A stretch of DNA of 64,000 nt from an uncultured Alphaproteobacteria bacterium (lineage in GTDB: Bacteria; Pseudomonadota; Alphaproteobacteria; RF32; CAG-239): contig CALXUP010000006.1 in NCBI GenBank assembly GCA_944391715.1, positions 1,895 to 65,894 of the forward strand, given 5' to 3'. Below are positions 8,797-63,116 of this stretch, piece by piece. Numbering within the stretch: the first letter of the stretch is position 1; every line of letters starts with the position of its first letter. The position numbers and the translations under genes are program-made. The notes beneath the pieces are model-generated. The model was given only the letters and a program-made list of their open reading frames with translations, had not been told where the DNA came from and made no database searches.

Positions 8797-8815
8797 GCTT
8801 TTTCTCCTCAAAAAA

Positions 8816-13385: not shown

Positions 13386-13429
13386 GAAAGATAAACATCT
13401 TTCCTCTATGAAATCAAACCTATGTTCTG

Positions 13430-13726: not shown

Positions 13727-14104
13727 TTTTATCACTCTTTTTGTTGGCCGTAAAACGGAACATACTCGGAACAACCGCACCAACCACCCCGTACAAAAAA
13801 CCAAAAGAAAAAGTCGGGCTTAGGCAGCCGAAGATTATACCGCAGGTCAGTAATGAAAAAATGTTTGCTCAGACTTCCGGATTTTTTAATTTATACCGTT
13901 TTAAAATGTTCTGAAATATATGTACTAACAGTAATACCCAGATTATCCAGTGAATAATTGATGGCATGATTATCCCCTATTGCACTCATATTATTTCCTT
14001 ATAAAAATTTAATATCCAAACTATTATGACATTTGCATTTAATTAAACTTTTGCTGTTATTACATTAGAATAGTAGATTTTAGCAAGTTAATTTGAGGAT
14101 AAAA

Positions 14105-14554: not shown

Positions 14555-14601
14555 ATAAAAAATTACTTCAAACGCATCTTGTATTAACTTTTTGATAAGC
14601 T

Positions 14602-15351
14602 TTATTCCATTCTTAATCTGTTGATTCTTGGAATTAGGCCTCTATAGTTTGGTCTTTTTTGTTTGGCCTCTTCAATTCTTTTTTCTAGAACATAATTATT
14701 AATCAAAGCAACTGTATTTTCATCAATATAATTTAAACTATTTATTGTTTGACTCCCCAAAATACCGTCTTCACTTACAGTATTATGACTATAAAGATTA
14801 ATCCCTTCTTGAAGCCATTTTGTAATATCCTTCGGACTATGATTGACATAGCTATCAAACATTGTTTCCGCCAACTTTTCATTTTGAATTTCATTTATTC
14901 GATATGCATCGTAGTAATCGTTTTTATAAATGATATCAATATGATGTTGAGTTAAATCTTTTATATCGTTAGGAAATGTCTCTCTATAGTGCGGATGAGC
15001 CCTTAAAAAACGATTTAACGTCGGCTGTATAATTCCAGTATGCGTCCTTTGATCTATTTTCGCTAAGTTATCTTCATATCCTATCCCTTCAACTTCTGGG
15101 CTCTTTAAATTTCTAACAAATTTTTCAAAACGAGAAGGAAAATATTCAGTGTTTCTTCTCTCTTGTGGTATGTATGATATATTTTGTTCTTGATATAATG
15201 ACTGTCCCCAGGCCGGTGTCGGTTCAATGTAAGATTGTTCATTTTTCCCGAATAGTTCAAAATAATTTACCTGCCGATCTTTGTTAAAATTGTTCTCAAT
15301 CGGCATTGGCTCATATTTACCACCAAGCAGTTTTCCGATGCTTTTACTCAT
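14602..15351 (-). CDS. GH108-family muramidase with C-terminal PG_binding_3-like domain (endolysin or virion-associated lysin) carrying a 70-aa N-terminal extension
   Basis: 249 aa. Residues ~75-235 follow the GH108/PG_binding_3 pattern: EVEGIGYEDN...THTGIIQPTL (cf. EGGYxxDPxDPGGxTxxGIT), IIYKNDYYDAYRINEI (cf. IYxxxYWD), MFDSYVNHSPKDITKWLQ (cf. FDxAVNxGxxxAxKxLQ), DGILGSQTINSLNYI (cf. DGxxGxxTxxAL). The first 11 aa are identical to the needle-like protein. Confidence 0.6.
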   Translation of the reverse strand: MSKSIGKLLGGKYEPMPIENNFNKDRQVNYFELFGKNEQSYIEPTPAWGQSLYQEQNISYIPQERRNTEYFPSRFEKFVRNLKSPEVEGIGYEDNLAKIDQRTHTGIIQPTLNRFLRAHPHYRETFPNDIKDLTQHHIDIIYKNDYYDAYRINEIQNEKLAETMFDSYVNHSPKDITKWLQEGINLYSHNTVSEDGILGSQTINSLNYIDENTVALINNYVLEKRIEEAKQKRPNYRGLIPRINRLRME

Positions 15352-15415
15352 TTATTTTCTCCTTTTATGATTTGTTAAAATTATGGCGCCGGATTACCAG
15401 CATAAAAAAAGAGGA
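15319..15415. repeat. copy B of the ~95 bp promoter/RBS/5'-coding module (MSKSIGKLLGG)
   Basis: See copy A (13290-13385). Confidence 0.6.
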
Positions 15416-15447
15416 AGGCTCTCACCCTCCTCCCGTTTATGGTGCCG

Positions 15448-18128: not shown

Positions 18129-18424
18129 GTTTTCTCCTTATTGGTTGTTATTTAATAAAAAAAGAACACCTGTTCAGGCTTGAACAGATGCTCGTTATAC
18201 AAAAAAACGCCGATATTACGGCGTAAGCTATTTTCTTTAGTTAAATTTTACTGATAATTTGTTTTTTATAAAAATTTAACTGCTACTTTCAAAAAAGACT
18301 TACAGTAAAAATAATTGTCCAATATAACATATAAAAAAATAGACTTAATGAAAATATATATCCAATGATTATTAATGTAAAATTTAAATAAACTAAAAAC
18401 TTATTCAAAGATCATTTCCTTTTA

Positions 18425-18640
18425 TTATAATTCTGACTTTATAACGGTGCAAAAAGTTATACAATAAATATAACCAAATAGAAGAATGCTTAATAGCAAT
18501 ATTCTAATAATGTATTTCCAATGACGAAAATAATTTATTGCTTTTATTTTATCAAAAAATTTAATAAGTAAACCTGAAGAATCTGTATCTTTAATACTAG
18601 ATTCTTCAAGTCGTTTTTGTTCTTTTTTTGTTTTTCTCAT
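18425..18640 (-). CDS. small tail-anchored membrane protein, KTKKEQ family (member 1)
   Basis: MRKTKKEQKRLEESS...AINYFRHWKYIIRILLLSILLFGYIYCITF. Basic N-terminus, C-terminal TM. AT-rich. Confidence 0.45.
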   Translation of the reverse strand: MRKTKKEQKRLEESSIKDTDSSGLLIKFFDKIKAINYFRHWKYIIRILLLSILLFGYIYCITFCTVIKSEL

Positions 18641-18644
18641 ATTA

Positions 18645-18920
18645 TCAAATATCCTTAACTGTATCAGCAAAAAGAAATACTAATATTAAAAGTTCAATGT
18701 ATGTCAGAAATAATGCAATTTCTACATTTTCTTGTTTTAAGAGCGACAATTTTTTCCCGAACAAAATGCATAAAAAACACCCTGACAGAAAAAATAATAA
18801 AGCTATACAAAGCCAATCCAAAAATAAATTTTCTTTTTGAACACCGATTATTCCCATAAAAAAGACAGGAACCGTCATTGTTAACAACATTGCCAACTGA
18901 TGAAAAAATTGTTTTATCAT
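18645..18920 (-). CDS. small multi-TM membrane protein (family 3, member 1)
   Basis: 91 aa. The C-terminus LLKQENVEIALFLTYIELLILVFLF is similar to that of 20704..20961. Confidence 0.45.
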   Translation of the reverse strand: MIKQFFHQLAMLLTMTVPVFFMGIIGVQKENLFLDWLCIALLFFLSGCFLCILFGKKLSLLKQENVEIALFLTYIELLILVFLFADTVKDI

Positions 18921-18921
18921 T

Positions 18922-19212
18922 TTACATCCCTCTCATAAGCGATGCGATTATTGGCAATCCAATAACCAAGGCAATAAAAAACAAAATCCAATCTATATAC
19001 AGAGCATATTGTATTATCTTGCGGTAAGGAATACCTAACGTGATATTAAAGAAGGCCAGAAATGCTAAGACAAATAAAATAATCTGTAATGCTATAAAAA
19101 CATATGGGGCATAATAACCTGAAAAACCTAACATTTCGCCTACTATAGACAAGGGCGCAATTGCAACCCATGCTGCGTAAACCCTGATAAAATTTTGTAT
19201 CCGTTCTTTCAT
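18922..19212 (-). CDS. small multi-TM membrane protein, MKERIQNFIRV family (member 1)
   Basis: 96 aa. The N-terminus MKERIQNFIRVYAAW is nearly identical to that of 20992..21270. Confidence 0.5.
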   Translation of the reverse strand: MKERIQNFIRVYAAWVAIAPLSIVGEMLGFSGYYAPYVFIALQIILFVLAFLAFFNITLGIPYRKIIQYALYIDWILFFIALVIGLPIIASLMRGM

Positions 19213-19223
19213 TCTCTTTTCCT

Positions 19224-19352
19224 TAAGAAATCATTTTGAGCAATAAACCAAACCATATTCCTCCTAAAACAAACATAGAGATAAGAAACGTCGGCACTAT
19301 TGCTGCATATAAAACAACTAAAATAACAAACTGAAAATACTTATGTTTCATC
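19224..19352 (-). CDS. 42-aa hydrophobic peptide, translationally coupled (TGATG) to the upstream gene
   Basis: MKHKYFQFVILVVLYAAIVPTFLISMFVLGGIWFGLLLKMIS. Start overlaps the stop of 19352..19500. Confidence 0.3.
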
Positions 19353-19500
19353 AGATTAGCCCCAAAATGATATTACCCCAAAGCAGAAGACTGAATAAAA
19401 ACATCCACAAAAGCCAAATAAAGTGCTTTTTATAATCAATATTATCTACCAAGTTATTAACTTCAGATAGTTTATCTTTCAATTTTTGATTTTTCTTCAT
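19352..19500 (-). CDS. small tail-anchored membrane protein, IDYKKH family (short member)
   Basis: MKKNQKLKDKLSEVNNLVDNIDYKKHFIWLLWMFLFSLLLWGNIILGLI. ATGA overlap with the upstream gene. Shares the NIDYKKHF motif with 20045..20233 and 20428..20640. Confidence 0.4.
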
Positions 19501-19664
19501 AACAGAAACTCCATTACCTGCATTTCTATTTTAGTTAAAATAACGAAGCCTATAATAAAGATAGAACTCGTCATAAAAAACACAGCCAGAGGAGCAAGAA
19601 ATAAGTATCCTGCCCCAATCATAATTAATTGTATAAAAGAAGACACTGTTTTTAATTTTGACAT
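19497..19664 (-). CDS. 55-aa 2-TM membrane peptide, translationally coupled
   Basis: MSKLKTVSSFIQLIMIGAGYLFLAPLAVFFMTSSIFIIGFVILTKIEMQVMEFLL. Stop overlaps the ATG of the next gene (ATGA). Confidence 0.3.
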   Translation of the reverse strand: MSKLKTVSSFIQLIMIGAGYLFLAPLAVFFMTSSIFIIGFVILTKIEMQVMEFLL

Positions 19665-19673
19665 TTTCGAACC

Positions 19674-19889
19674 TTACCAATCTAATGAAGAAAAAAAGAA
19701 ACACACTGCAAATATAAATACAAAGAACAATAAGATGTCTAATAAAAATAATTTCCAGAGTCTTTCACCTTGCTTTTTGTAATCAAGCTTATTAACTTTT
19801 TCTATCAGCTTAGACCAGCAGTTAGAAGAAGTTAAAAATTTTTCATTAACTTCTTCCGGACACATTTGTTCTTTTTTTGTTTTCCTCAT
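19674..19889 (-). CDS. small tail-anchored membrane protein, KTKKEQ family (member 2)
   Basis: RBS aagga + ATG giving MRKTKKEQMCPEEVNEKF...KLDYKKQGERLWKLFLLDILLFFVFIFAVCFFF. The longer ORF-track N-terminus is hydrophobic and lacks an RBS. Confidence 0.45.
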   Translation of the reverse strand: MRKTKKEQMCPEEVNEKFLTSSNCWSKLIEKVNKLDYKKQGERLWKLFLLDILLFFVFIFAVCFFFSSLDW

Positions 19890-20044
19890 ATTAAATCCTT
19901 CCCGTCCAATCATTCTTACATATTTAATATTCCGTTTGTTACCATTGAGGCCATAGCTGCAAAATACATAAAAAATATAATTGAAGAGATATAACCAATT
20001 AACAATAAAATAAATTTTATAATCACACTCATAATCATCACTTT

Positions 20045-20233
20045 TCAAAGTATATATAAAAAGGTACCAATTGAATAAATAGCCAAAATTATTCCAAGGA
20101 TAAAAATTACTTTAATAATTTTCCAATGTTTTTTATAATCGATACTATTAATGAAATTATAAAAGCGGGAGAAAGCTGTTGTTTGCACGACAACTTCTCC
20201 CTCTTTCTTTTGTTCTTTTTTTGTTTTCACCAT
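20045..20233 (-). CDS. small tail-anchored membrane protein, KTKKEQ family (member 3)
   Basis: MVKTKKEQKKEGEVVVQTTAFSRFYNFINSIDYKKHWK + TM. About 80 bp of DNA (20150-20230) is identical to 20555-20640. Confidence 0.5.
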   Translation of the reverse strand: MVKTKKEQKKEGEVVVQTTAFSRFYNFINSIDYKKHWKIIKVIFILGIILAIYSIGTFLYIL

Positions 20234-20427
20234 ATTATCAAATATCCTTTATTTTTCAAATTTTATTCTTTTTTTTATTTTCAAAAGATACAATCATACA
20301 ATAAAACAGTTAATGACACTAACAAAAAAAGAGTTAAAGGAAATAATATGATATAAGAAAACGACAACAAAAAGAAGCGCATGAGCAAGAAGTATGTTTT
20401 TGAATTTTTCATATATATTCCTTTTTG

Positions 20428-20640
20428 TTAACTTAACCCATCAAAAGCATTTCCTGTCATAACAACAAAAGTTATTGTTAGAACGATGAAAAGAGTTATG
20501 TCTGCCAAAATCAACCAGCAAACATATTTAAAGTGTTTTTTATAATCGATGTTATTAATAAAATTATAAAAGCGGGAGAAAGCTGTTGTTTGCACGACAA
20601 CTTCTCCCTCTTTCTTTTGTTCTTTTTTTGTTTTCATCAT
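20428..20640 (-). CDS. small tail-anchored membrane protein, KTKKEQ family (member 4)
   Basis: MMKTKKEQKKEGEVVVQTTAFSRFYNFINNIDYKKHFKY + TM. Its first 35 aa are nearly identical to member 3. Confidence 0.5.
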   Translation of the reverse strand: MMKTKKEQKKEGEVVVQTTAFSRFYNFINNIDYKKHFKYVCWLILADITLFIVLTITFVVMTGNAFDGLS

Positions 20641-20703
20641 ATCATCAAATATCCTTTATTTTTCAGATACTTTGACAATATTAGATTTTTTTATATTTGT
20701 CTA

Positions 20704-20961
20704 CTAAAAAGGTACAAGGGCACCTAAAATAAATATTTCAGGAAACAAGAGGAAAAGTGCTAACTCTGTGTATTCTTGTTTGACATACGGAAGAGAAACC
20801 CCCACCAGCACTAAGAAAATGCTTATTGCCCATATCCAGCCTAAAATGACGGCCAAAAACATTATCGTTCCTATTCCCCCAAAAAGACCAATGAATAACA
20901 AAAAAAATAACGAGGGAAACATACCACACAAAAACATTAAATTCCAAAAACGTTCTTTCAT
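20704..20961 (-). CDS. small multi-TM membrane protein (family 3, member 2; MKER-like start)
   Basis: 85 aa. MKERFWNLMF... C-terminus YVKQEYTELALFLLFPEIFIL resembles that of 18645..18920. Confidence 0.45.
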   Translation of the reverse strand: MKERFWNLMFLCGMFPSLFFLLFIGLFGGIGTIMFLAVILGWIWAISIFLVLVGVSLPYVKQEYTELALFLLFPEIFILGALVPF

Positions 20962-20991
20962 TATCTTTTCTCTTTCTATTTTGCCTGAATA

Positions 20992-21270
20992 TCATTTCAA
21001 CATCATATTGTTCAACATTTCGATCCCAAATATTATAGTATCAACAACTATCCCCCAACGCACAATTTGAGCATAAGGAATTTTGAATGTTATTTTGAAG
21101 AATGCGAAAATTGCTAACACTAAAGCTATGGGAATGGATAAAAAAGGTGCTCCCCAAACTATTACAGCCCACTCATATTCTATTACCCACCGAAGCATAA
21201 AAAATAGAAAAATATCTACAACCATAAAGGCTGCAAATACTCTGATGAAATTTTGTATCCGTTCTTTCAT
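20992..21270 (-). CDS. small multi-TM membrane protein, MKERIQNFIRV family (member 2)
   Basis: 92 aa. MKERIQNFIRVFAAFMVVD... is a paralogue of 18922..19212. Confidence 0.5.
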   Translation of the reverse strand: MKERIQNFIRVFAAFMVVDIFLFFMLRWVIEYEWAVIVWGAPFLSIPIALVLAIFAFFKITFKIPYAQIVRWGIVVDTIIFGIEMLNNMMLK

Positions 21271-21334
21271 TTATAAGCTATCCTTTCATATTTTGAAAGG
21301 ATAGCTTATATTTTTTATTTTTTCAACTTAAATT

Positions 21335-26160: not shown

Positions 26161-26350
26161 ATTATATTGTTCTTAGATTGTTCTGAGAGACCAGAAAGTG
26201 GTTGGTCACATATAAGAGTAATTTTATATTAGAGGATAATGGAACACGCGCCCATCCAGAGCAATTTAGAAAAGCCTGAATATGACGATATTCTTGTTTT
26301 TCCAGAGCCGGGATATGACGATATCCCGGCTCTGTTTTTTATTCCGTCTC
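26161..26350. repeat. direct repeat R1 flanking the secreted-protein moron (contains terminator-like palindromes)
   Basis: Shares with 27090-27250 the blocks ttgttct(t/c)agattgttctgag, gcgcg..ccatccag.gcaatttagaaaagcc and the perfect palindrome gagccgggatatgacgatatcccggctc. Confidence 0.55.
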
Positions 26351-26995
26351 TATCCAAAAATTTTCAGAAGTGACCGGCGTAAACTCTTTTTTATCCAAAA
26401 AGAAAGTTCTATTATACACTTTCCAATCAGCTCTCATATCATCACCGTCCCAATTATAATGGATATCAAGCAACGGATTTGACAGATGAGTTAAATCAAA
26501 TTGTACGGAAGTTATCATTCTGCCATTATTGAGGCTTACTGCTTCCAGCGCATCAATAATGACTTTGTTATTCATTTTAACGGTCAGGTAAAATTGCTGA
26601 TAAATACCAGCGCTCCCTTCACCGGAAAGAAATTGATATTTATCTCCTATTTTATAATTTTTTTTCGGATTAAGCGCGTTTATCTGTACCTCAAATATCC
26701 TATTATCAATTTTGCAGGAAGCATTATAGCTCTTTTGCCACAATATTTTGTCATTATTATCAAGCTTATAAAGCGCCTGTAAATTATATAATCCGTATTT
26801 TTGAATATAATCCGCAGATTGTGTCAGTAATTTTTCCTGCAGGTCTTCACTGGTACGTGGATGTTCTACCGTCATATACAGGCTTTTTAGTTCCGGCCGG
26901 CACTGAATGCGCAAAAAATCATTCCAGAAATCTGCCTTGGCAGAATTGCAGCATAATATTCCAACAAGTCCTATTAAGACAACATATTTTTTCAT
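26339..26995 (-). CDS. secreted protein (signal peptide), AT-rich moron
   Basis: RBS aaggagag + ATG. MKKYVVLIGLVGILCCNSAKA then a hydrophilic N/K/Y-rich domain of ~195 aa. Confidence 0.55.
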   Translation of the reverse strand: MKKYVVLIGLVGILCCNSAKADFWNDFLRIQCRPELKSLYMTVEHPRTSEDLQEKLLTQSADYIQKYGLYNLQALYKLDNNDKILWQKSYNASCKIDNRIFEVQINALNPKKNYKIGDKYQFLSGEGSAGIYQQFYLTVKMNNKVIIDALEAVSLNNGRMITSVQFDLTHLSNPLLDIHYNWDGDDMRADWKVYNRTFFLDKKEFTPVTSENFWIETE

Positions 26996-27089
26996 GCTCT
27001 CTCCTTTGATAATAATAGTAATTATAATAATTGAACACAATAATTTTACAAGCAATAATTTAATCTTTCGTGCTTGACTTTCTTAAGAC

Positions 27090-27250
27090 AAATGCTACAT
27101 TGTTCTCAGATTGTTCTGAGGGCCAGAAAATCACGCAGTGGTGTCCACTGGTTTGTTAGTGTAGATATATGATGGAGAAGCGCGTGTCCATCCAGTGCAA
27201 TTTAGAAAAGCCGGGATATGACGATATCCCGGCTCTGTTTTCAGAATACA
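27090..27250. repeat. direct repeat R2 (partner of 26161-26350)
   Basis: See R1. Includes the hairpin ctcagattgttctgag and the palindrome gagccgggatatgacgatatcccggctc + TTTT. Confidence 0.55.
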
Positions 27251-27301: not shown

Positions 27302-29221
27302 TCAGAATTCTTTTACAAATCCGGAAGAGATATTTCCGGGGTTGTCAGAGAAAGGCGCCAAAGCGGCATTTTTCTCCGGCATTTTTTCAAGCTGGGCGGT
27401 TTTCAACCTTGCCTGCATTTCCATTTCTTTATTGGTCATATAGAGTTTGTTTTGCTCAACCCACTCTTTTAACTGCAATTCGCGGGCTTTTAAGTTGTTT
27501 TTCTCCCGTTCCAGCTGATATTGCGCCGCGGCTTTTTCCCGCTCCAGAGTCAGAGCCTCGTTCGGCTTTTGCGGCAGAGTTTCGTCCGGCTTATTCAGCT
27601 CCCGTTCAATATCGTTAAAAACTTTTTCAACCGTTGCCGTAAACTGGCGGGATTTCGGCATTGTTACCACAACAGACATTATCATCTGGCGGTACAACGG
27701 CAACAGCAGCGGCTGGCTTGATACGGTTTGAAAAGCTTTTGCAATCAGCTCATTTATGGTGTTTATGCCTTCCAGCGTTTTTGCGGCTTCCTGCGCCTGC
27801 TGAAAAGCAACGTCGGTTTCCACACCCAGCACCATACCGCGCAAGTTGTCGGTTTTTAACAGCCGGACGGCATCTTTGGCCAGCGCCGTATTTTGCCGTT
27901 CTTCCGGCGGCAAAAATCCCAGCAGCGTTTCTTCCGAAAAACAACGGCAGATAATTTCCGCCTTAATCCTGAACACATCCCCGATAAAGCGCTGCATATC
28001 ATTTTGGCGATCCTGATTGCGCAAAGTGCCGAAATTGGTCTTTTCACGGACGGCCGTTGCCGTATCGCCGGGATTGGAGCTACCGCGCATAATATCCGAT
28101 ACGCCGGTTACATCAAAAATCTTGGCAATAATATCCTGTCTTCTGGCCGCCAGTTGTTCCAGAGCCGTTACATACTGCTCAACCGGAACAAAGTCTATAA
28201 TCCCGCGAATGCCGCCATTGTCTTTGAGTTTTTGAAAATCATTGAGCGATACAAGCGTTATGTCCTTATTCAGGATGCTCTTTAACTCGGGAAAAGAATT
28301 GTCATAACAGCCGGAGACTTTCAGCGCTTTCATCGTCAAGCGCATCCGGTTGTTGATGCCGTCCAGCTCAGAAAGCATTTCTTTAATCATCGAATAGTCC
28401 GGCGTCGGGATAATGCTGTTATTGGTCATGGTGGCAAAAACCGGTTTCGGACACGGGAAAAAGCCTTTCAGCCCGAAAGGATCGTTTGCGACTTTTAAAA
28501 ATCCGTTTTTATATTCTTTACAGAGCCAATAGACTTTTCGCGCCGTCTTGTCCCAGACTTCATAAATACAAACGTCTTTTTTGGCATAGTCTTTTTCATC
28601 GGGGCGGATTATAAACGGCGCCAGATGTTCGCCGAACAATTCAACCGCTTCCGTCTTGCCCATATGAATCCTTTTGGCAATCCAGGCTGCGTCTTCCCAA
28701 ATGCCGACTCTATCACAATCGGCAATAAAATCGGCCGGATCGACATAAACGGTTTCTACCCTTTCTCCGACTTTGACCTCAATTTCTTTTTCGGGATTTT
28801 CGCTGTCCGGCAAGCTCCGGAACTCCGGAATATACTGCTCCCAGACAAGCCCCATGCCTGATATCAGAAAATCGTTGCGGGCATATTTTAATACGCTGTC
28901 AAAATCAAATTGTTCCATATTCCAGGCCAGTGCCTTTTCCAAAATCCGGCAAGCCAGTGTTTCTGCCGGATCGGCGTTTTTGTTGCGGCGTTCAATGTAG
29001 GGCTTGGGCTGCTTGAAATATAAAAAGGGTTTTAACGTTTCGACCGTCGACCAAAAGATATTGTAACGGCCGGCACGGGCTATGTCAGAAGTTTGGTCTT
29101 TATAATAATTTCTGGTTTCGGCCACCAGGCGGTGGTATTTTTCATAATGCCGTTCCGCCGCGGACAGCCGCTCTATCCAGGTTTCGACTTCGTTTTTATA
29201 TACGGGGATTATATTATTCAT
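27302..29221 (-). CDS. portal protein
   Basis: 639 aa. Sits immediately after the terminase/GroES-like genes and before the scaffold and capsid genes. Size and acidic-helical C-terminus are typical of podovirus portals. Confidence 0.65.
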   Translation of the reverse strand: MNNIIPVYKNEVETWIERLSAAERHYEKYHRLVAETRNYYKDQTSDIARAGRYNIFWSTVETLKPFLYFKQPKPYIERRNKNADPAETLACRILEKALAWNMEQFDFDSVLKYARNDFLISGMGLVWEQYIPEFRSLPDSENPEKEIEVKVGERVETVYVDPADFIADCDRVGIWEDAAWIAKRIHMGKTEAVELFGEHLAPFIIRPDEKDYAKKDVCIYEVWDKTARKVYWLCKEYKNGFLKVANDPFGLKGFFPCPKPVFATMTNNSIIPTPDYSMIKEMLSELDGINNRMRLTMKALKVSGCYDNSFPELKSILNKDITLVSLNDFQKLKDNGGIRGIIDFVPVEQYVTALEQLAARRQDIIAKIFDVTGVSDIMRGSSNPGDTATAVREKTNFGTLRNQDRQNDMQRFIGDVFRIKAEIICRCFSEETLLGFLPPEERQNTALAKDAVRLLKTDNLRGMVLGVETDVAFQQAQEAAKTLEGINTINELIAKAFQTVSSQPLLLPLYRQMIMSVVVTMPKSRQFTATVEKVFNDIERELNKPDETLPQKPNEALTLEREKAAAQYQLEREKNNLKARELQLKEWVEQNKLYMTNKEMEMQARLKTAQLEKMPEKNAALAPFSDNPGNISSGFVKEF

Positions 29222-29474: not shown

Positions 29475-29480
29475 GAAGTT

Positions 29481-29575
29481 TCTCCTTATCTTGTTTGGGG
29501 TTATAAAAAAATCCCGCCGGGAAAATTGCACAGCGGGATAAGCAAAAGTATTGAAGCTATTTTTCGGGAGCTTTA
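29481..29575. repeat. direct repeat D1 (copy of the terminase-downstream terminator+RBS region)
   Basis: ~95 bp nearly identical to 30906-30999: tctccttatcttgtttggggttataaaaaaatcccgccgggaaaattgcacagcgggataagcaaaagtattgaagctattttt. Confidence 0.6.
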
Positions 29576-29599
29576 CATAAACGGCGGACAATAAGCTGT

Positions 29600-30094
29600 T
29601 TAATGCTCATTTTCTGCCAAAATAATCATTATTATAAAGGCCAGCAAAGGCAGGCTTAGTACCAGACTTCCCATTCCGGCATTATATAATATGTTCCAAG
29701 TAACAGAAATTTGATTACTGATTGTTTTCATCATCAAAATGGCATAATAAGCAATCAGCCAAAGCAGATATTCAACGACCATAAAACGGCCGGTTTTTGA
29801 GATTTTCCAGAGTTTCGTTCCGATCTCCCGCAACAGCCAATATAACGGTATTGCCAAAAGGTAAATTCCGAAAACGGCACCGGCCGTTAGGCGGCAAGGC
29901 ACTCCGAGCCAATACCAATTGAACCAGCTTTGAAAGTTTATTTTTCCGACTATATCATCTTGCTGCCATAGGTATATGTCACATTGTGCTCCTTGCGTAT
30001 TATGGTTGATTACAACAGCGCCAATGCAAAAGATCAGACTTAAACAGACCATACTGGCAAAGATATATAAAAATTTTGGCCAAACACGAAACAT
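29600..30094 (-). CDS. 4-TM membrane protein, AT-rich moron
   Basis: 164 aa, very hydrophobic, AT-rich codon usage unlike the surrounding phage genes. Confidence 0.5.
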   Translation of the reverse strand: MFRVWPKFLYIFASMVCLSLIFCIGAVVINHNTQGAQCDIYLWQQDDIVGKINFQSWFNWYWLGVPCRLTAGAVFGIYLLAIPLYWLLREIGTKLWKISKTGRFMVVEYLLWLIAYYAILMMKTISNQISVTWNILYNAGMGSLVLSLPLLAFIIMIILAENEH

Positions 30095-30282
30095 TATTTT
30101 TGCTTTTTGTTATAAATATTATGACTTTCCTTAGAACTTTCTTTTCCTTTATTTACCATTATAATATTTTCCATATTTATTAAAATATTGTAACTTTATA
30201 AAAGGATGGTTGCTTTTATTATTTGACACTAAATTTAAAGTTTTTTATTATTAAGTACAAGATATAAAAGACGGGTTCTTCC

Positions 30283-30867
30283 ATGTTAAGTGTATTAAAA
30301 GACGCTATTGTTTTATTTCTGAGAAAAATAGACATTTTTATTGTATTTATTACACCGGTATTTTTAATAAATATTTTTCTCTTGCCCTCATCGATAAAAA
30401 TCCTGCTTAATGCCTTTGCTTATTGTATAACGTCTTTAAGTATATATCTTTATCTTTTGCATAACGATCTTTGTTTACGCTTTTTCTCTTTTCGGTTGTT
30501 TTTCTCTTATTTTTTGGCAGATTCTGCCATTGCCGCCGGTTATTTTATTTTGGTTTTTATTATTCAATTAATACCAATTTCCACAATCTGGCAGGTTTTA
30601 TGCGTCTATCTGCTAGGCTTATATTTTCTATGTCGCTTAAGTTTAATTCCGGCCTTGATTGCCGCTCAAAAAACGATATCGATACAAGATATTTTATTCA
30701 AAAACAAAAACAGTTATTTTCAATGGATGTCAGCGGCCACGGTTCTCTATCTTCCGTTTTTTCTGAGCAGGGTATTTATTCCTGAGGGAATTTCTCTTGC
30801 TTTTATAACATCATTACAAACTCCACTTTTATGTTGTTTTTATGTTTGTTATCTTAAAAAGCATTAA
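30283..30867 (+). CDS. polytopic membrane protein, AT-rich moron (divergent from 29600..30094)
   Basis: 194 aa, 5-6 TM, on the strand opposite the phage operon. Shares a 190 bp AT-rich intergenic region with its divergent partner. Confidence 0.5.
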   Translation: MLSVLKDAIVLFLRKIDIFIVFITPVFLINIFLLPSSIKILLNAFAYCITSLSIYLYLLHNDLCLRFFSFRLFFSYFLADSAIAAGYFILVFIIQLIPISTIWQVLCVYLLGLYFLCRLSLIPALIAAQKTISIQDILFKNKNSYFQWMSAATVLYLPFFLSRVFIPEGISLAFITSLQTPLLCCFYVCYLKKH

Positions 30868-30905
30868 TTAATTCCATATACTGTTTCATTTTGTGCATTT
30901 CCTTT

Positions 30906-30999
30906 CTCCTTATCTTGTTTGGGGTTATAAAAAAAATCCCGCCGGGAAATTGCACAGCGGGATAAGCAAAAGTATTGAAGCTATTTTTTGAGGGTTTTA
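30906..30999. repeat. direct repeat D2 (native terminator + RBS region immediately 3' of terL)
   Basis: Contains the hairpin atcccgctg..cggcgggat + T-run and RBS aaggagaaagg. See D1. Confidence 0.6.
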
Positions 31000-32346
31000 C
31001 CAGCCGGAATTATCTTTTTCACCAGCGGCGAGGGCAAACATTTCTTCTATTGAGACCTTGCCGTTGCCGTATAATTTCGGTTCACCGCAATCATAAACCG
31101 GTTCGGCAAAGGTTAATGCCAAAGCATCTCCTTTGTCCGGAGAGCGTCCAAGACGCTTTTTGACCTCATCTTTTTCTTCCATTTGCAACCTTCCTTTCCG
31201 GTCATATTTCTTATTGACCGCAGTTAAATCGTTAAACAGTTCTTCATCTTCGGGAAGCTGGACTGGCGGCTGAGATTTGAGCCACTGATTGACGCTGTCC
31301 CACATTTCGGCGCGCCGGTTGAAATAACGCTCTTCGTTAATTGCTTTTTCGCCAAAATAAATCCCGCGGATAATCTCCCCAAAACCGCGGTCTTTTAAAA
31401 TGTCATATACGCCGGCGCCCTGCCCACCGATATCCATAAAAATCCGGTACGGGCGGCATTCTTTGATAAAACGGGTTGCCAGATTGGCCACACCGACGTT
31501 GTCTTGTTTATAATAACTCTCAAAGCGGTAACACCACCGGCCTTTGCGAAAGCAAAAAGAAGTTGCGTCATCGCCGAATCTGGCAATATCCAATCCGATA
31601 ATCAGCGGCGAGGTACTCCCGTTCATTTTGGCTTCAAAAGCCCGGCGGACGTCGGTTCCGGAAATCAGCCTGGTATTGCTCTGCACGATCGGGGCGCCGA
31701 GCCAGATATGCGCATAGTCATCGGGTGAGTTTTTCCGGCATTTTTCGGCCTGATATTTGATTTCTTCCGGACAAAACGGGTTATCGTAATAATTGACGCA
31801 GCGGACAAGCGTTCTTTCATCGGGATTGGCGGCAACGGCCATCCACAAAGGATCGTTTTCTTCTTCACGGTTCATGGAAATCCAGATTTCGGAACCGTCT
31901 TTGCGAATCGTCGGCTCCAAAATCTCCCAGCTTTTTTTGCTGATGGTTTGCGCCTCTTCAATCCAGGCAATGTCCACACCTTCCAGGGATTTTATTTTCT
32001 GGCTGTCCTGATCGCGCAGGCCTTTGAAGATAAACTTTGTGCCGGTGATTGTGTTTTCTATTTTGGTTTCATAAATTTTATAATCGCCCAGAGAATAAAA
32101 AGAAATCCGGTCGCACAGAAGTTTGTGGACCGAATCTTTGATTGATTCCTGAATCTCCCTCAGGCAGGCGATAAAAAGCTTTTTCTGCCGCCCCAAAAAC
32201 AGCAGGCTGTCGGCAAAAGCATAAGATTTTCCGCCGGCACGTCCGCCGTAATAAAACTTAATCCGCTTTTTCTCGGTCATCAGCGGCGCAAACACCCGGG
32301 CCATCTCGGCACATTTGGTCTTGGGTTTGGCGTTTGTTTTTCTCAT
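30997..32346 (-). CDS. terL: terminase large subunit (PBSX/Terminase_3-like)
   Basis: 449 aa. Walker A-like YYGGRAGGKSYAFA, then GVDIAWIEEAQ (Walker B/coupling) and a nuclease C-terminus. The true start may be an internal Met (32304 or 32280) overlapping terS. Confidence 0.85.
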   Translation of the reverse strand: MRKTNAKPKTKCAEMARVFAPLMTEKKRIKFYYGGRAGGKSYAFADSLLFLGRQKKLFIACLREIQESIKDSVHKLLCDRISFYSLGDYKIYETKIENTITGTKFIFKGLRDQDSQKIKSLEGVDIAWIEEAQTISKKSWEILEPTIRKDGSEIWISMNREEENDPLWMAVAANPDERTLVRCVNYYDNPFCPEEIKYQAEKCRKNSPDDYAHIWLGAPIVQSNTRLISGTDVRRAFEAKMNGSTSPLIIGLDIARFGDDATSFCFRKGRWCYRFESYYKQDNVGVANLATRFIKECRPYRIFMDIGGQGAGVYDILKDRGFGEIIRGIYFGEKAINEERYFNRRAEMWDSVNQWLKSQPPVQLPEDEELFNDLTAVNKKYDRKGRLQMEEKDEVKKRLGRSPDKGDALALTFAEPVYDCGEPKLYGNGKVSIEEMFALAAGEKDNSGW

Positions 32347-52026: not shown

Positions 52027-52491
52027 ATGATGAAACAATATATTTTGGGGAGCGTCTTATGCTGCACCGCTCTTACTTCCGGTTATGCCTTAGCGGCCTG
52101 CACCCAAACGCCGGATTGTGAGACGATGGGATACATATATACTGCCGACGAATGTCCGAACGGCGGCGTTAAATGTCCGTTTGATATCAGCAAATATTTT
52201 TGTTTCGATCCAAGCGAAAATGCCCCCTCTGTTCCGACGAGCGGATATTGTTGTGGATACACTAATTACTGCGGATACAGTGGCGGAACGTCAAGCTCTA
52301 ATGACTCTACTTGTCAAAATTATTATGGCAGAAGTTGTTATGAACAATGTAAAAGCTATGGTTTTACAGATTGTAATGATTTGCAGGATAGTTGTCGAAC
52401 CTCCGGCGGTACTCCGGTCTTCCAAGGTTGTAACGGTACCGGTGATAACGACCTTTACTATGCCCACGGCGTCACCTTCGCGTGCCAGTAG
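52027..52491 (+). CDS. secreted cysteine-rich small protein (19 Cys in ~132-aa mature part)
   Basis: RBS gggagag + ATGATG. Signal peptide MMKQYILGSVLCCTALTSGYALA. Mature region rich in C/G/Y/T/S/N/D (CTQTPDCETMGY...GYCCGYTNYCGYSGG...CQNYYGRSCYEQCKSYGFTDCNDLQDSC...). No family recognised. Confidence 0.6.
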   Translation: MMKQYILGSVLCCTALTSGYALAACTQTPDCETMGYIYTADECPNGGVKCPFDISKYFCFDPSENAPSVPTSGYCCGYTNYCGYSGGTSSSNDSTCQNYYGRSCYEQCKSYGFTDCNDLQDSCRTSGGTPVFQGCNGTGDNDLYYAHGVTFACQ

Positions 52492-52494
52492 TCG

Positions 52495-53050
52495 TCTCTG
52501 CCTGTCATTGCCGGACTTGATCCGGCAATCCCGATAGACAAAGAAGCCATATAATTGACCTGGATCTCCGGGTGTAAATTCCCGCAAGCGGGCCCCTTGG
52601 CACTTCGCCAGCTCAGCGATTTTATCCGGCAGTCCCAGTGCCTGCGGCACGCGACGCCGAATGCAATTGCGTCCCGTAGGGTTCGAACTTCGTACAAATC
52701 TAAGCTAAAGCTAAGGATTTGCACTCGTTCTCACCAACTATCGACTTCAAGCCCGGGGATGACCTGCTCGGCAGGCGCGCGGCGAACTGAAAGCACTGTG
52801 TTCCAGGGACCGCGTTGCTCCGGCGGAGGTTGTGAATGACTTTGTGCTTTGAAGTATGGATCCCCGGGTCGCAGCCCGGGGATGACAAAAAACAAAAACA
52901 GCCCGGGGATGACGAAAGAAAAAAGAGTCCGGGGATGACAAATAAGAAAAAGAGCCTTGGGGATGACAAATAAGAAAAAGAACCCGGAAATGACCTGCAC
53001 GGCAGGTGTGCGGCGAACTTTACTTGCATTAACAGCTATATTTTCAGATA
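52495..53050. repeat. repeat island: 28 bp palindrome-containing block, two copies of a ~45 bp element flanking four 27 bp tandem repeats
   Basis: gtcattgccggacttgatccggcaatcc (52504-52531) is identical to 6559-6586. cccggggatgacctgctcggcaggcgcgcggcgaact (52746-52790) is similar to cccggaaatgacctgcacggcaggtgtgcggcgaact (52984-53022). Tandem units cccggggatgac[a/g]aa..aaaaa.ag about 4 times across 52872-52983. Confidence 0.6.
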
Positions 53051-58856: not shown

Positions 58857-59153
58857 TTGTTGTTCAATTTAAAATGTACCGATATGAAAACAAGAAAAGA
58901 AATTCACCAGGAAATTAATGCTCTCGGAGGTTTGTCCAGATTGGGAAGCCTTTCGCTGGAAGAGCTGAAAAAACTCTATTCCCTTTATCGTGAAGACTTA
59001 GATTGGATTCAGGAAAATGCCCCATTGCAACAGTATAATGCAATGTATGATGCCAATTATAACGCCCGAAAGGAAGTAAATAAGGCTTTTTGTAAAAAAA
59101 TCGGAAGCACGCATATTTCTTTGGACAAGGAGTTTTCAGACGAAAGGCAATAG
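58857..59153 (+). CDS. hypothetical protein
   Basis: 98 aa (the start may be the internal MKTRKEI). AT-rich. Convergent with the radical SAM gene. Confidence 0.35.
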   Translation: MLFNLKCTDMKTRKEIHQEINALGGLSRLGSLSLEELKKLYSLYREDLDWIQENAPLQQYNAMYDANYNARKEVNKAFCKKIGSTHISLDKEFSDERQ

Positions 59154-59185: not shown

Positions 59186-59210
59186 AAAAGGGGGACTTTG
59201 TCTCCCTTTT
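59186..59210 (-). terminator. terminator-like hairpin (probable original secA terminator)
   Basis: Minus strand: gggagacaaagtccccc followed by TTTTC. It directly follows the duplicated secA-end remnant. Confidence 0.45.
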
Positions 59211-59243
59211 TTATACTCTGCAGTGGCAATGTTTGAACTTGTT
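59211..59243. repeat. remnant duplicate of the secA 3' end (last ~10 codons + stop)
   Basis: Minus strand reads aac aag ttc aaa cat tgc cac tgc aga gta taa (NKFKHCHCRV*). Compare the genuine secA end aaa aaa ttc aaa cat tgc cac ggc aga gta taa ([10 protein letters not shown]) at 60387-60419. Confidence 0.6.
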
Positions 59244-59245
59244 TA

Positions 59246-60202
59246 CTATTCTTCCACCCATTCTTGAATTTTGCGTGAAGATACTTCCCACGGAATATTG
59301 GTTGCGTGGTTCATATCACAATATTGGCAAAAAGGCTGCGCATTAGACATAAACTTCATTACCTCTTCTTTGCTTGATGTTTTATATAAATCGACATAAT
59401 CTAAAGATGATAATTGAAATCTTCCGCTCATAGCTTCTTTTTTCATACATTCGTTGAATAATTGATAGAATACGGGAATTGGACAATGGAATAGTTTTCC
59501 ATCTCTTAATGTTGCACAATCTGTATATGCACAACGTATATATGATTTCCAAGCATTATTAACTCCGCTTGCTTTAAGAGGAACGCGACGAAAATATTTA
59601 ATTGGATCTTTACCGCCTGCGGAAAAGACATATACTCCAAATCCTTTTACATACTCTACCATTTTATTATAATCCAAATTAATCGGATATTGGGTATATT
59701 TTAATGCAACATTATACTCAGCCATTGTTTCCCAGAGAGACTGTTTCATTTTGAAAACTAATATACCATTAGTTGTTACATCTATTCTGGCCTGTGAAAA
59801 TATTTTTCTTGCACTTCGTATAAAATCTTCTAACCGGGGATGAAGAAGGGGTTCTCCTCCTAAAAGATGGATTTGACTTACACTGTCTCCAATTAAGTCG
59901 TGTAATTTTTTTAAATCTTTTTCAAAACTTTTCACATCTGCATAATGCTCTTTTGCTATTGGCGCATAAGTACTGCAGCATTTACAATTTAAATTACAGT
60001 GATCTACAAGATGAAAATCCAAATGTTCAATAAAATGTCTAGGAAGAATTTTTGATAACTCATCTGTAACAGCCGGAATAGAATTTTTGATATCTTTTAA
60101 TAAGTTATAATTATGAGCTTGTTGTTCTGTTATATTATTCGATACAGTTTCCTTTTTATGCTTTTTAGGTTGTATTTTTATTATATCACATAATTTTCCC
60201 AT
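59246..60202 (-). CDS. radical SAM protein with SPASM/twitch-like C-terminal Cys cluster (peptide- or protein-maturase-like)
   Basis: 318 aa. CNLNCKCC (CX3CX2C) at about residue 68. GGEPLLHPRL motif. C-terminal CAYTDCATLRDGKLFHC...FCQYCDM. Strongly AT-rich relative to the neighbours. Confidence 0.75.
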   Translation of the reverse strand: MGKLCDIIKIQPKKHKKETVSNNITEQQAHNYNLLKDIKNSIPAVTDELSKILPRHFIEHLDFHLVDHCNLNCKCCSTYAPIAKEHYADVKSFEKDLKKLHDLIGDSVSQIHLLGGEPLLHPRLEDFIRSARKIFSQARIDVTTNGILVFKMKQSLWETMAEYNVALKYTQYPINLDYNKMVEYVKGFGVYVFSAGGKDPIKYFRRVPLKASGVNNAWKSYIRCAYTDCATLRDGKLFHCPIPVFYQLFNECMKKEAMSGRFQLSSLDYVDLYKTSSKEEVMKFMSNAQPFCQYCDMNHATNIPWEVSSRKIQEWVEE

Positions 60203-60386
60203 TAGATTTTAATATCCTCTACATTGATTATCCCAAAAAATGCCACACCTTCTTTTATAATATTAAATTAATATTGTAATTATTTATACTTATTGTCAAT
60301 GTTAAAACTGATTTCTTACCAATAAAAATAATCCGCTAAATACACGTTATTTAGCGGATTATTGGATTAAGACTAATTTGAAACCA

Positions 60387-63116
60387 TTATACTCTGCCGT
60401 GGCAATGTTTGAATTTTTTGCCGCTGCCGCAGGGGCATGGGTCGTTGCGGGAAATGCGTCCCCAGGTTTCCGGGCGGCTGGGATCAAAAGGCTCATTGCT
60501 ATAGCGGAACGGCGACGGTTTTTCCGCTGTCGGCGTTTCTTCCCGGGGTTTGCCGCCAATCAGCGCTTCCGGCTGTTCGTGAATCTCCTGAACATTCCGG
60601 GCTTTTTGCTCCTGAGCGCGCAAAGCATCTATCGCATCATTTTGAATTTGAGCCCGGCAAAGCAGGAAGGTTGTTTTTTCGCGCAGCTGGTCAAGCATTT
60701 GCGAAAACATTTTGAATGCCTCTTTTTTATATTCATTCAGCGGATCTTTCTGGCCGTATGCGCGCAAAACAATCGTATGACGCATCAGATCCAGCGCGGC
60801 AATGTGCTCTTTCCACAGCTGGTCAAGCACTTGCAGCAAAATGCTCTTTTCTACCAAATGCATCAGCTCGGCCGGAACAAAACGGTTCTTTTCTTCCAGG
60901 CCTTTGCGGACGGCATCCTGAATCCGGTCTTCAATCTGTCCGGCCTCGACTTCCGGTTCCGCCGACCATTCGGGAATTGGCAAAACAAAACCGGTAATGC
61001 GGAAGATTTCCTGTTTTAACTCTTCCGGACGCCATTCGCTCGGAGAAACACCATACGGAATATAATTACGGATAACATCAGAGAGATAATCTTCTCGCAT
61101 TTCGGTAACGGTTTCGGAGACGTCCTGAGCTTCCATCAGCTCGCGGCGTTGTTCATAAATCACCTTACGCTGATCGTTCATAACGTTATCATATTTCAGC
61201 AGGTTTTTACGAATGTCAAAGTTGCGTTCTTCAACTTTTTGCTGGGCTTTTTCCAGAGCTTTGTTAATCCACGGGTGAATCAGCGCCTCGCCTTCCGGAA
61301 GTCCGAGTTTTTGCAGCATATTGCTCATTCTTTCCGAGCCGAAAATGCGCATCAGGTCATCTTCCAAAGACAGAAAGAATTTAGACGTACCCGGGTCGCC
61401 CTGACGACCGGAACGACCGCGCAACTGGTTATCGATACGGCGGCTTTCATGGCGCTCCGTTCCCAAAACATACAAACCGCCGGCGGCCATTGCTTTTTCT
61501 TTGTCAGCGGCAATCTGCTTTTTCAGCTTTTCTTTGATTTCGGCAATTTGTTCTTCGGTTTCATCGCCTTTCAAGATCTCTTTCAGGCGCATTTCCAAGT
61601 TACCGCCGAGTTGGATATCGGTACCGCGGCCGGCCATATTGGTTGCAATGGTCACGGCTCCCGGAACGCCGGCCTGGGCAACAATCGCTGCTTCACGCTC
61701 GTGGTGACGGGCATTTAAGACCTCAAATTTAATCTTGGATCTGGCTTTGAGCATATCTGCCAAAAGCTCTGATTTTTCGATAGAAGTCGTACCAACCAGA
61801 ATCGGCTGGCCGCGTTTTTGACAATCGAGAATCGTATTGATAATTGCATTATATTTTTCACGGGCCGTGCGGTAAATTTCATCATGTTCGTCTTTGCGGG
61901 CAACCGGACGATTGGTCGGAATCTCAACACAGGAGAGATTATAAATCTCACCGAACTCGGCCTCTTCCGTCATTGCCGTACCGGTCATACCGGCCAACTT
62001 CGGATAAAGGCGGAAGTAGTTCTGGAACGTGATGGATGCCAAGGTCTGGTTTTCGGACTGAATTTTTACGCCCTCTTTGGCCTCAATCGCCTGATGCAGA
62101 CCGTCGCTGTAACGGCGTCCTTCCATCATACGGCCGGTAAACTCGTCAATAATCACAACCTTGCCGTCTTTGACGATATAATCGACATCGCGAATGTGCA
62201 TTTTATGCGCGCGCAAAGCCTGATTAACGTGATGTACCAGCGTTACGTTGCCGATGTCATACAATCCGCCTTCTTTTATCAGTCCGACTTTTTTGAGCAA
62301 TTGTTCAACGTGTTCCATACCGCTTTCGGTCAGGGTTACGGTCTTGGCTTTTTCATCTTTTTCATAATCGCTGTCAACCAGTTCCGGAATAATCTTATTT
62401 ACCAAAATATATTTTTCCGAGCTGTCTTCCGCCGCGCCGGAAATAATCAGCGGGGTTCTGGCTTCATCAATCAAAATGGAGTCAACCTCATCGACGATGG
62501 CATAATTGAACGGGCGCTGAACCAGTTCATCGAGGCTGAACTTCATATTATCGCGCAGATAGTCAAAACCAAGCTCGTTGTTGGTGGCATAAATAATATC
62601 GCAGTTGTAGGCGATTTTACGCTGCATATCATTTTTTTCGTGAATAATGTAGTCAACCGTCAGCCCGAGGAAACGATATACCTGCCCCATCCATTCGGCA
62701 TCGCGTTTGGCCAGGTAGTCGTTGACCGTAACAATATGGACGCCTTTGCCTTCCAGAGCGTTCAGATAGGCGGCCAGCGTAGCAACCAGGGTTTTGCCTT
62801 CACCGGTTTTCATCTCGGCAATCATACCCTTATGCAGGACAATACCGCCAATCAGCTGGACGTCATAATGCCTTTGACCCAAAGTCCGTTTGGCAGCCTC
62901 GCGGACAACGGCGAAAGCCTCCGGCAACAGGTCATCAAGCGTTTCGCCCTCTTTCAGGCGCTTTTTAAATTCAAGCGTTTTATTTTTCAGCTCTTCATCG
63001 CTTAATTTGGAGATTTCCGGTTCATAAGAATTGATTTTCTGGACGATTTTATATTGTTTTTTTACAAAGCGGTCGTTGGCGCTGCCAAAGACTTTGCGGG
63101 CGATACTTCCTAACAT
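60387..63116 (-). CDS. secA: preprotein translocase ATPase SecA
   Basis: 909 aa. N-terminus [16 protein letters not shown].... DEAD-like motor motifs ([27 protein letters not shown]). C-terminal Zn finger [14 protein letters not shown]. Confidence 0.9.

Follow-up and report, generated by a model that had tools for sequence, protein, structure and literature searches.

The stretch of DNA analysed here (in the following called the window) comes from an uncultured alphaproteobacterium, comprises 64,000 nt and corresponds to positions 1,895 to 65,894 of contig CALXUP010000006.1 in assembly GCA_944391715.1. Directly at the 3' end of its essential gene secA an AT-rich segment is inserted, which contains one gene for a radical SAM (rSAM) enzyme and lies between two copies of the last ten secA codons with the stop codon. 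The segment has defined boundaries at this position, related genomes contain empty sites, the distribution is patchy, and the cargo gene is intact and under selection. Two lineages with unrelated downstream flanks carry it, whereas a near-conspecific sister lineage of one of the two lacks it. With slightly more confidence than doubt, we interpret it as a non-autonomous, horizontally acquired single-gene cassette that was integrated by a single crossover at a mimic of the secA terminus.

The target gene occupies 60387..63116 on the minus strand, an open reading frame (ORF) of 909 aa. Its identity was confirmed by the Pfam SecA domains on the identical gene of contig L085, and protein P0255 is 100% identical. 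As seen in the repeat search and the junction sequences, its last ten codons and stop form the proximal, attL-like repeat copy R1 (60387..60419, minus strand). The distal, attR-like copy R2 (59211..59243, minus strand) reads NKFKHCHCRV*. Both together represent a 33-nt direct repeat with 30 of 33 identical positions and a start-to-start spacing of 1176 nt. With a chance expectation of ~5e-9 for such a match in 2.2 kb, the copy is a real duplication and not too degenerate to count as one. The 15-nt repeat core TTCAAACATTGCCAC occurs within the 64-kb window only at the R1 and R2 sites. A previous interpretation of the locus, made from the letters of the window and called the sequence-only reading below, had proposed an insertion exactly at the secA 3' end with duplication of the terminal codons; all elements were found where it had placed them.

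Between R1 and R2 lie 1,143 nt (59244-60386) with a GC content of 30.6%, compared to 46-50% in the flanks. In the direction of secA the insert consists of a terminator, a promoter-like site, a leader and one ORF of 318 aa. The terminator T_E (60327..60363, minus strand) follows directly after the secA stop and is an intrinsic terminator with a perfect 16-bp stem and a T-run. Its calculated fold of -19.1 kcal/mol (z = -7.0) is much stronger than that of the hairpin beyond R2. T_E is conserved in L001 and L095, two contigs of a second filled lineage, with a compensatory change from G:C to A:U, which argues for a functional hairpin. Thus, as the sequence-only reading had not recognised, secA is supplied with a terminator by the insert itself.

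The promoter-like site (60270..60299, minus strand) contains a -35 element TTGACA at 60294-60299 and reached 10 of 12 matches in a consensus scan. TTGACA is present at the equivalent position in L001 and L095 as well as in the variant contig L084, and the site probably serves as the cassette's own promoter. A leader of ~70-90 nt with a Shine-Dalgarno-like AGAGGA connects it to the rSAM ORF; all Rfam matches in a search of this leader for riboswitches or other known RNAs were below threshold. The rSAM gene (59246..60202, minus strand), which encodes a predicted twitch-type enzyme of 318 aa, is the only ORF of at least 60 aa within the insert, and R2 starts 2 nt past its stop codon. The description as a single AT-rich gene with the radical SAM motifs discussed below is therefore correct, and so is the statement that no recombinase is encoded within the cassette.

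Beyond R2 follows the host-side terminator hairpin T_W (59186..59210). On the minus strand its fold amounts to -10.5 kcal/mol (z = -2.0), and a terminator match on the plus strand was obtained at 59190-59205. With T-runs on both strands T_W can terminate bidirectionally, being common to the old secA end and a convergent small ORF. The latter (58884..59153, plus strand, 89 aa) lies outside the cassette; the 98-aa version considered previously is the same ORF counted from an upstream TTG. Homologues of 77-85 aa with 60-72% identity are located beside an M48 peptidase gene in L095, L103 and L097. Since they occur in filled and empty genomes alike, the small ORF, which had been considered as a possible substrate, is a host gene outside the insert and unrelated to the cassette. 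An exact look-up of the 89-aa sequence returned no record. The low GC content extends to ~58750, the additional part being the small ORF, which every relative has retained, whether its site is filled or empty. Past the small ORF the M48 peptidase gene follows in the window, too.

Other types of insertion were considered at this junction. A longer duplication including the terminator was rejected on the basis of the dissimilar flanks after R1 and R2 (z <= 2.3). The insert ends without terminal inverted repeats, the duplication measures 33 nt and an ORF for a transposase is lacking; missing inverted repeats and transposase argue against an insertion sequence or transposon, including a Tn7-like one. 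A match of the small ORF to TnsD is noise (15.5 bits compared to a cut-off of 32.4).

Filled and empty sites in related genomes

Close relatives were found by a search with the full-length secA; its C-terminal 240 aa gave only fragments of <= 65% identity. In a scan with the secA C-terminus, the nearest species representatives were metagenome-assembled genomes from mouse gut and yak. Being only 60% identical there and followed by other downstream genes, they are useless as empty sites.

The identical rSAM protein is encoded on 18 examined contigs from gut-type metagenome assemblies, and the architecture of the window was present in 10 of 10 places shown. The sister filled lineage is represented by L095 (GCA_034116525.1), L096 and L001. 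Its enzyme of 319 aa is 91% identical to that of the window at the amino acid and 87% at the nucleotide level, the T_E and promoter region is homologous (75% identity), and a 21-nt spacer precedes R2. R1 and R2 agree in 33 of 33 positions in L001, compared to 30 of 33 in both L095 and the window. Although the cargo of L001 and L095 is 99.7% identical, R2 equals R1 only in L001, with 3 mismatches in L095. This difference indicates that the repeat copies interact. Homology between the window and L095 extends from secA through the last base of R2 (window 60498 to 59208, 83%) and then drops to 45%. The DNA beyond R2 is unrelated: the window has a short terminator there, then the small ORF, whereas a terminator, a Cys-rich gene and repeats are found in L095.

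Three empty lineages were identified in the search for unoccupied sites that the sequence-only reading had suggested. In L103-L105 and L107, in L097-L102 and in L189 a single copy of the repeat is followed by a terminator and no cassette is present. In the first of these lineages secA ends with GGTAAACTATAG (ctatag/aaagca...), after which come a hairpin and, in convergent orientation, a Cys-rich gene of 376 aa. The second one (secA 88% identical at the amino acid level) ends with TTGTGA, after which a terminator and a 360-aa Cys-rich gene follow. In L189 (87%) the gene ends with AAAGTTTAA and its stop codon directly abuts the strong terminator AAATCCCCGCTTCT...AGAAGCGGGGATTT (also given as CCCGCTTC...GAAGCGGG), which is of the same type as the terminator after R2 in L095. 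The terminator after the repeat in L084 also resembles that of L095 (local-alignment z = 5.9; 0 of 200 shuffles reach the score). As both match the post-R2 type of L095, R2 and its terminator can be regarded as the displaced original end of secA, in accordance with the tentative assignment of the hairpin at 59186-59210 as the original secA terminator in the sequence-only reading.

One filled and one empty lineage are nearly conspecific. L095 and L103 share 94.9% of the nucleotides and 99.0% of the amino acids of secA, with 93.9% nucleotide identity for the M48 gene, while the window is only 85-86% identical to either of them at the nucleotide level. The resulting distribution over the lineages is ((filled, empty), filled), empty.

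The 1,318-bp Logan contig L084 provides a third cassette type with an rSAM protein of 80% amino acid identity, one repeat copy and no secA. Its first 30 nt are exactly its last 30 nt, implying a unit of 1,288 bp; we take the Logan assembly to use k=31, so the overlap corresponds to k-1. The contig may derive from a circle of 1,288 bp or from tandemly arrayed units, which in our own estimate is rather probable. L084 and the window are 100% identical in the final ~115 nt of the rSAM gene, compared to 79% elsewhere, and the repeat of L084 differs from R2 of the window in one base (G in L084 and in the secA end of the window, T in R2). Such an identical patch of ~150 nt in otherwise 79% identical cassettes points towards recent recombination between cassette variants.

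The Cys-rich genes directly downstream of secA in the relatives belong to a family with 33-49 Cys that is probably secreted and has no Pfam match (L095 5057-5923, L103 7825-8955, L097 7793-8875). It is hypervariable: genomes that agree to 95-99% in the flanking genes share only 53% of the amino acids here. In the window the copy at the secA locus is missing, and a shorter paralogue with 17 Cys is located at 52027-52491. Between this paralogue and an amidase gene four tandem units of ~27 nt were observed (52873-53006, AGCCCGGGGATGAC plus an A-rich stretch). L095 contains a tandem coding-like repeat between its Cys-rich gene and the small ORF (6310-6850), which reads PLLPSPSLSF and EGEGRRGKER on opposite strands and is absent from the window. 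In L098 (9078-12444) the Cys-rich ORF is followed by DnaJ/TerB, a B12-binding radical SAM and an amidase gene, without small ORF and M48; this change of genes represents either a rearrangement or a misassembly at the hot spot downstream of secA.

Possible routes of insertion

In the favoured scenario a circular molecule with one copy of the secA terminus would recombine with the 3' end of secA in a Campbell-type crossover. The incoming copy would restore the last ten codons of the gene and bring in the new terminator. secA would stay intact and insulated, and the original end together with its terminator would be pushed downstream. Either a recombinase whose gene lies elsewhere or homologous recombination, using the 33 identical nt, could have catalysed the crossover; the data fit both. 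Of the integration proposed in the sequence-only reading, the genuine insertion that regenerates the end of the gene is retained, while its site-specific nature is one candidate, matched equally well by a single crossover at the 33-nt block that is driven by homology. The idea that the secA 3' end was transferred together with the cassette was also considered and rejected, as the filled lineages are not unusually similar to each other in this part of secA.

Several observations weigh against a cassette that enters by crossover. No recombinase was found in the cassette or the adjoining genes (secA, small ORF, M48), the part of this genome that the search covered. R2 was examined as a site under selection, an idea that was rejected: with 88% compared to 75% it is not significantly more conserved than the other non-coding DNA of the cassette, so there is no evidence of site selection. 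Between secA and the small ORF, L103 differs from L095 throughout: the two final codons of secA already deviate, and the Cys-rich genes in this interval are 53% identical. The absence of the cassette in L103 may therefore be due to allelic replacement via flanking homologous recombination instead of excision. In L084 the break point lies in the terminator beside the repeat, where an exact 30-nt flanking repeat in a chromosome gives the same contig, and the terminator after the repeat is of the host type, not T_E as expected from a simple excision between two repeat copies. With a synonymous divergence (dS) between the window and the L095 type of 0.67 for the cargo and of 0.78, 0.95 and 1.42 for three flanking host genes, cargo and host values are of the same order, which is compatible with a long vertical residence after one old insertion. 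The segment was not inserted recently: it is fixed among the 18 examined contigs with the identical rSAM protein, and the filled lineages have diverged to this cargo dS of ~0.67. Viral, phage and plasmid collections contained no close copy of the cassette, only homologues of 24-28% identity. Searches for the repeat pattern AARTTCAAACATTGCCACKGYARAGTRTAA in JGI metagenome contigs and IMG/VR and for a cassette-specific rSAM pattern in IMG/VR gave 0 matches each. In favour of an acquired, mobile cassette, in addition to the distribution, the boundaries and the exchange among cassettes and repeats described above, the cargo dS lies below all three host values. The GC content at third codon positions (GC3) of the cargo is 0.21 compared to ~0.5 in host genes, and polarised third-position changes in the cargo (AT>GC 35, GC>AT 12) are as expected for amelioration, although polarisation by parsimony is biased towards AT>GC in AT-rich sequence.

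Alternatively, the segment could be what is left of an integrase-bearing island. An element with a tyrosine or serine recombinase, whose attP carried the terminal 33 nt of secA, would have been reduced to the rSAM unit by internal deletions, and the remnant would be a relic, similar to the CIMEs described below, that is immobile or can only be mobilised in trans. In both cassette types the duplicated block runs from a fixed point in the coding sequence to the exact stop, a pattern seen with element-borne copies that restore the 3' end of a target gene. The terminator supplied by the element at once after the block and the single repeat copy at empty sites are also in accordance with this origin. 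However, neither a larger version nor a recombinase was detected beside secA in ~30 related loci. With the rSAM stop 2-23 nt from R2 and T_E ~25 nt after R1, almost no room is left for arm-type sites. The window also has three AT-rich inserts elsewhere, described below, whose unrelated sites are flanked by 97-176 nt of duplicated sequence; these further argue against a secA-specific integrase. We consider a decayed island unlikely.

A one-off illegitimate insertion, to which we assign a similarly low probability, would require neither a circle nor dedicated mobility. A staggered break or template switching would have duplicated the 33 nt, followed by vertical descent or by swaps together with the flanks (secA, M48 and small ORF). 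The dS values of cargo and host genes given above, the fixation in the species of the window and the lack of a close copy in the viral, phage and plasmid collections support this view. The same applies to the interval between secA and M48, a hypervariable hot spot in which whole alleles differ between near-conspecific genomes. Against it stands the homology of the filled lineages, which extends precisely to the last base of R2 before unrelated DNA begins, so that a single ancient insertion needs a subsequent rearrangement with its end point at this very boundary. Moreover, L084 reads through the repeat without secA and has k-1 identical ends, the 100% identical patch is common to L084 and the window in otherwise 79% identical cassettes, and R2 was converted to R1 in L001.

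The locus offers a clean natural case of a single foreign gene that was placed directly behind an essential gene without damage by supplying replacement codons and a terminator. The comparative set is complete, with filled and empty sites as well as what may be a circular form, and no recombinase is attached.

The radical SAM cargo

The protein contains the motifs C69-x3-C73-x2-C76 and GGEPLL (residues 115-120) as well as the C-terminal cysteines C224, C240, C292 and C295. All of these are common to 46 homologues, with invariant cysteines. Membership in the radical SAM superfamily is supported by PF04055 with 50 bits (cut-off 29.5); this generic Radical_SAM match is the only one in Pfam. The classification by hidden Markov models (HMMs) that had been proposed in the sequence-only reading reached no NCBIfam cut-off, including SPASM and MoaA, and no housekeeping family was matched. 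Matches to MoaA, viperin and SPASM maturases cover the core only.

An AlphaFold model on the alignment of the 46 homologues was obtained with high confidence scores (pLDDT 92, pTM 0.85). The best structural match in Foldseek is SpeY (7WZV; E = 2.5e-15, TM 0.67-0.71, 277 columns, 21% identity), followed by BtrN. The profile HMM of the family also finds SpeY at E = 1e-21, and the motif DG-LYRCP is common to both. The protein is thus predicted to have the twitch-type fold and cysteines of SpeY and BtrN. With these aminoglycoside and aminocyclitol twitch dehydrogenases (BtrN: 4M7T) it has the CX3CX2C core and the C-terminal auxiliary-cluster domain in common. The spacing C224-x15-C240-x51-C292-x2-C295 is of the BtrN type, judged by what we take to be the numbering of the BtrN ligands. 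In contrast to the known enzymes, with 21% identity the cassette enzyme belongs to a separate, uncharacterised family, which is located in surface-polysaccharide clusters and not in antibiotic pathways.

Homologues with 26-60% identity are frequent in metagenomes of anaerobes. GT2 glycosyltransferases adjoin them in 24 of 76 loci; further recurrent neighbours are NAD-dependent epimerase/dehydratase, DegT aminotransferase, hexapeptide acyltransferase, the ATPase of an ABC exporter, FkbM methyltransferase, WbsX and TupA, all in all genes of surface polysaccharides. From fold and homologue context, oxidation or epimerisation of a sugar (nucleotide-sugar or glycan unit), altering the surface polysaccharide, appears to be the most likely function. 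Two points speak against this assignment: the gene has no glycan neighbours in this genome, and the proposed substrate rests on the fold and on the neighbours of homologues that are 26-60% identical. The cargo would mark a widespread, uncharacterised twitch radical SAM family from surface-polysaccharide loci of gut and sediment anaerobes, whose members might catalyse new sugar chemistry and contribute to cell-surface differences between strains.

The sequence-only reading had described the enzyme as maturase-like. Fold and sequence are nearest to SpeY and BtrN and the homologues occur in polysaccharide clusters, so that this label is better replaced by that of a putative sugar-modifying twitch radical SAM enzyme. 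A search for Cys-rich substrates or for ribosomally made peptides with post-translational modifications (RiPPs) is then probably misdirected. A cassette for a RiPP or protein maturase that acts on a Cys- or Gly-rich peptide or on the nearby Cys-rich secreted protein is accordingly seen as very unlikely, even though a 33-Cys ORF lies directly downstream of the L095 cassette, the 17-Cys paralogue is present in the window at 52027-52491 and weak NCBIfam matches to SPASM maturases exist. The SPASM models gave 24-35 bits compared to cut-offs of 225-650 and aligned to residues ~60-170 only; SPASM, RiPP, viperin and MoaA scores in general are far below their cut-offs and restricted to the core. The best structure and HMM matches are sugar-acting twitch enzymes, the neighbours of the homologues are glycan-biosynthesis genes and not precursor peptides, and no conserved precursor-like ORF was found beside the rSAM gene among the filled loci. 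In addition, Cys-rich genes are present at the same locus in the cassette-free L103, L097 and L189, while the locus copy is absent from the window.

Two further assignments were rejected. For a prokaryotic viperin with a role in defence, NF038283 reached 46 bits (cut-off 180) and the PADLOC pVip models cover residues 62-150 only. MoaA (TIGR02666) scored 51 bits compared to a cut-off of 284.

Practically negligible is the probability of an ordinary housekeeping gene that is normally found downstream of secA, with a 33-nt match by chance: the rSAM gene is indeed present in every contig of the window's species examined, but three related lineages, like more distant genomes, lack it behind secA, its GC3 and the chance expectation of the repeat given above disagree, and no NCBIfam housekeeping family fits.

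The gene is intact and under purifying selection with a dN/dS (ratio of non-synonymous to synonymous divergence) of 0.076. Flanking repeats at distant rSAM homologues were detected in 1 of 157 loci (L225 only), which suggests that the duplication is specific to the clade of the secA cassette. In L225, an IMG/VR contig, the distant homologue (4139-6597) is flanked by a duplicated neighbour gene of ~700 nt with internal 69-nt repeats.

Known systems and similar inserts in the prophage

Recombinase-free elements bounded by att-like repeats are known from the cis-mobilisable elements (CIMEs) of Streptococcus and from pseudo-SCC (SCC, staphylococcal cassette chromosome) elements without ccr at the 3' end of rlmH/orfX. 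Similar to these, the secA cassette adjoins the 3' end of a conserved gene, which the insertion regenerates, has direct repeats and single-copy empty sites and contains no internal integrase, so that mobility would be possible only in trans. It differs in consisting of one gene on 1.15 kb instead of several kb, and its repeat is 33 nt of coding sequence ending at the stop, for which homologous recombination may suffice. We know of no parent element with a recombinase at secA, and the top-ranked papers of a literature search do not mention secA as an attachment site.

Phage morons are independent units of promoter, gene and terminator with deviant composition between two genes. The secA cassette is comparable as a self-contained, strongly AT-shifted transcription unit between two undisturbed genes. 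In contrast, it is chromosomal, lies behind an essential gene ~23 kb from a prophage and is flanked by a target duplication, which to our knowledge is not part of the moron description. Taken together, it can be described as a CIME-like or moron-like islet whose cargo is a putative addition to the twitch radical SAM enzymes.

In T4-type phages, the promoter early stem-loop (PeSL) cassettes have promoter/stem-loop repeats that flank small ORFs, recombine and release mini-circles carrying the gene. The secA cassette likewise combines a small gene with one short repeat, a possible circle of ~1.3 kb (L084) and no dedicated recombinase, and recombination between short direct repeats is the proposed way in and out. 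Here, however, the repeat copies the local target and does not belong to a family of shared regulatory motifs, and the circle is a candidate suggested by the contig ends. With integron cassettes it shares the single-gene mobile unit without its own recombinase and, as proposed here, a circular intermediate with one site. It differs in having its own putative promoter and terminators and a repeat without dyad symmetry that copies the secA terminus, in place of an attC and its imperfect inverted repeats; its target, moreover, is where a protein gene ends. An integron gene cassette was rejected in view of the TTGACA promoter-like site, the missing intI/attI platform and the fact that the only strong hairpins are terminators.

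The window also contains a prophage with Terminase_3 (30997..32346), Cpn10 and a portal gene (27302..29221). Three AT-rich inserts with 33-34% GC were found in it, each between direct duplications of a local gene boundary. The insert at 29577-30902 lies between the copies of a 98-nt duplication (90% identical) that extends from the terminase stop through the terminator to the ribosome-binding site of the next gene. At 26339-27095, downstream of the portal gene, a 146/176-nt duplication comprises the intergenic region including the terminator hairpin. At 13389-15319 the duplication measures 97 nt (95% identical) and covers the intergenic region plus the first 11 codons, MSKSIGKLLGG. Such duplications at unrelated boundaries argue against a secA-specific integrase. 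They suggest that duplication-flanked AT-rich cassettes are a recurrent route of gene gain in this host.

A broader generalisation would be a class of recombinase-free AT-rich cassettes in host and prophage, each with a gene-boundary "address" of 33-176 nt. Its members would be circles of ~1-2 kb that enter by a single crossover at the boundary and regenerate the end, the start or the regulatory signals of the target, the secA cassette being the chromosomal example and the three prophage inserts the others. We regard this idea as quite unlikely at present. If the address copy does direct integration, it would represent a simple, homology-addressed type of gene gain that is missed by searches based on integrases or transposases, and the entry of moron-like units into the genomes of phages and hosts may have the same explanation.

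Prophages with an identical terminase from other samples carry different cargo between the same repeat copies at the terminase slot, and also after the portal gene (two slots compared). The slot between terminase and Cpn10 is thus a hypervariable cassette slot; in more distant phages no insert is found at the terminase slot. In L207-L212 (~7350-9700) Phage_Mu_F is either present or absent and a 126-aa ORF occurs in place of a 164-aa one. In L212 a 168-aa ORF lies inside the second repeat copy, without a duplication.

The contents of the three prophage inserts are as follows. The 1.3-kb insert at 29577-30902 (GC 0.33, region 29479-31000) has two small membrane-protein ORFs and is located between the terminase and Cpn10 genes. 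The insert at 26339-27095 (region 26163-27241) consists of a single gene (26339..27055, minus strand, 238 aa) with a signal-peptide-like N-terminus, and a perfect 33-nt hairpin repeat is present in its flanks at 26306-26338 and 27209-27241. In the 1.9-kb insert at 13389-15319 (GC 0.33, region 13292-15416) the same N-terminal peptide is encoded by the inserted gene (249 aa) and by the displaced one (290 aa). Elsewhere in the prophage, an AT-rich array (18200-21300, GC 0.28-0.30) of small membrane-protein genes was observed, in which the 5' modules MKERIQNFIRV and M.KTKKEQK are repeated in three and four copies, respectively.

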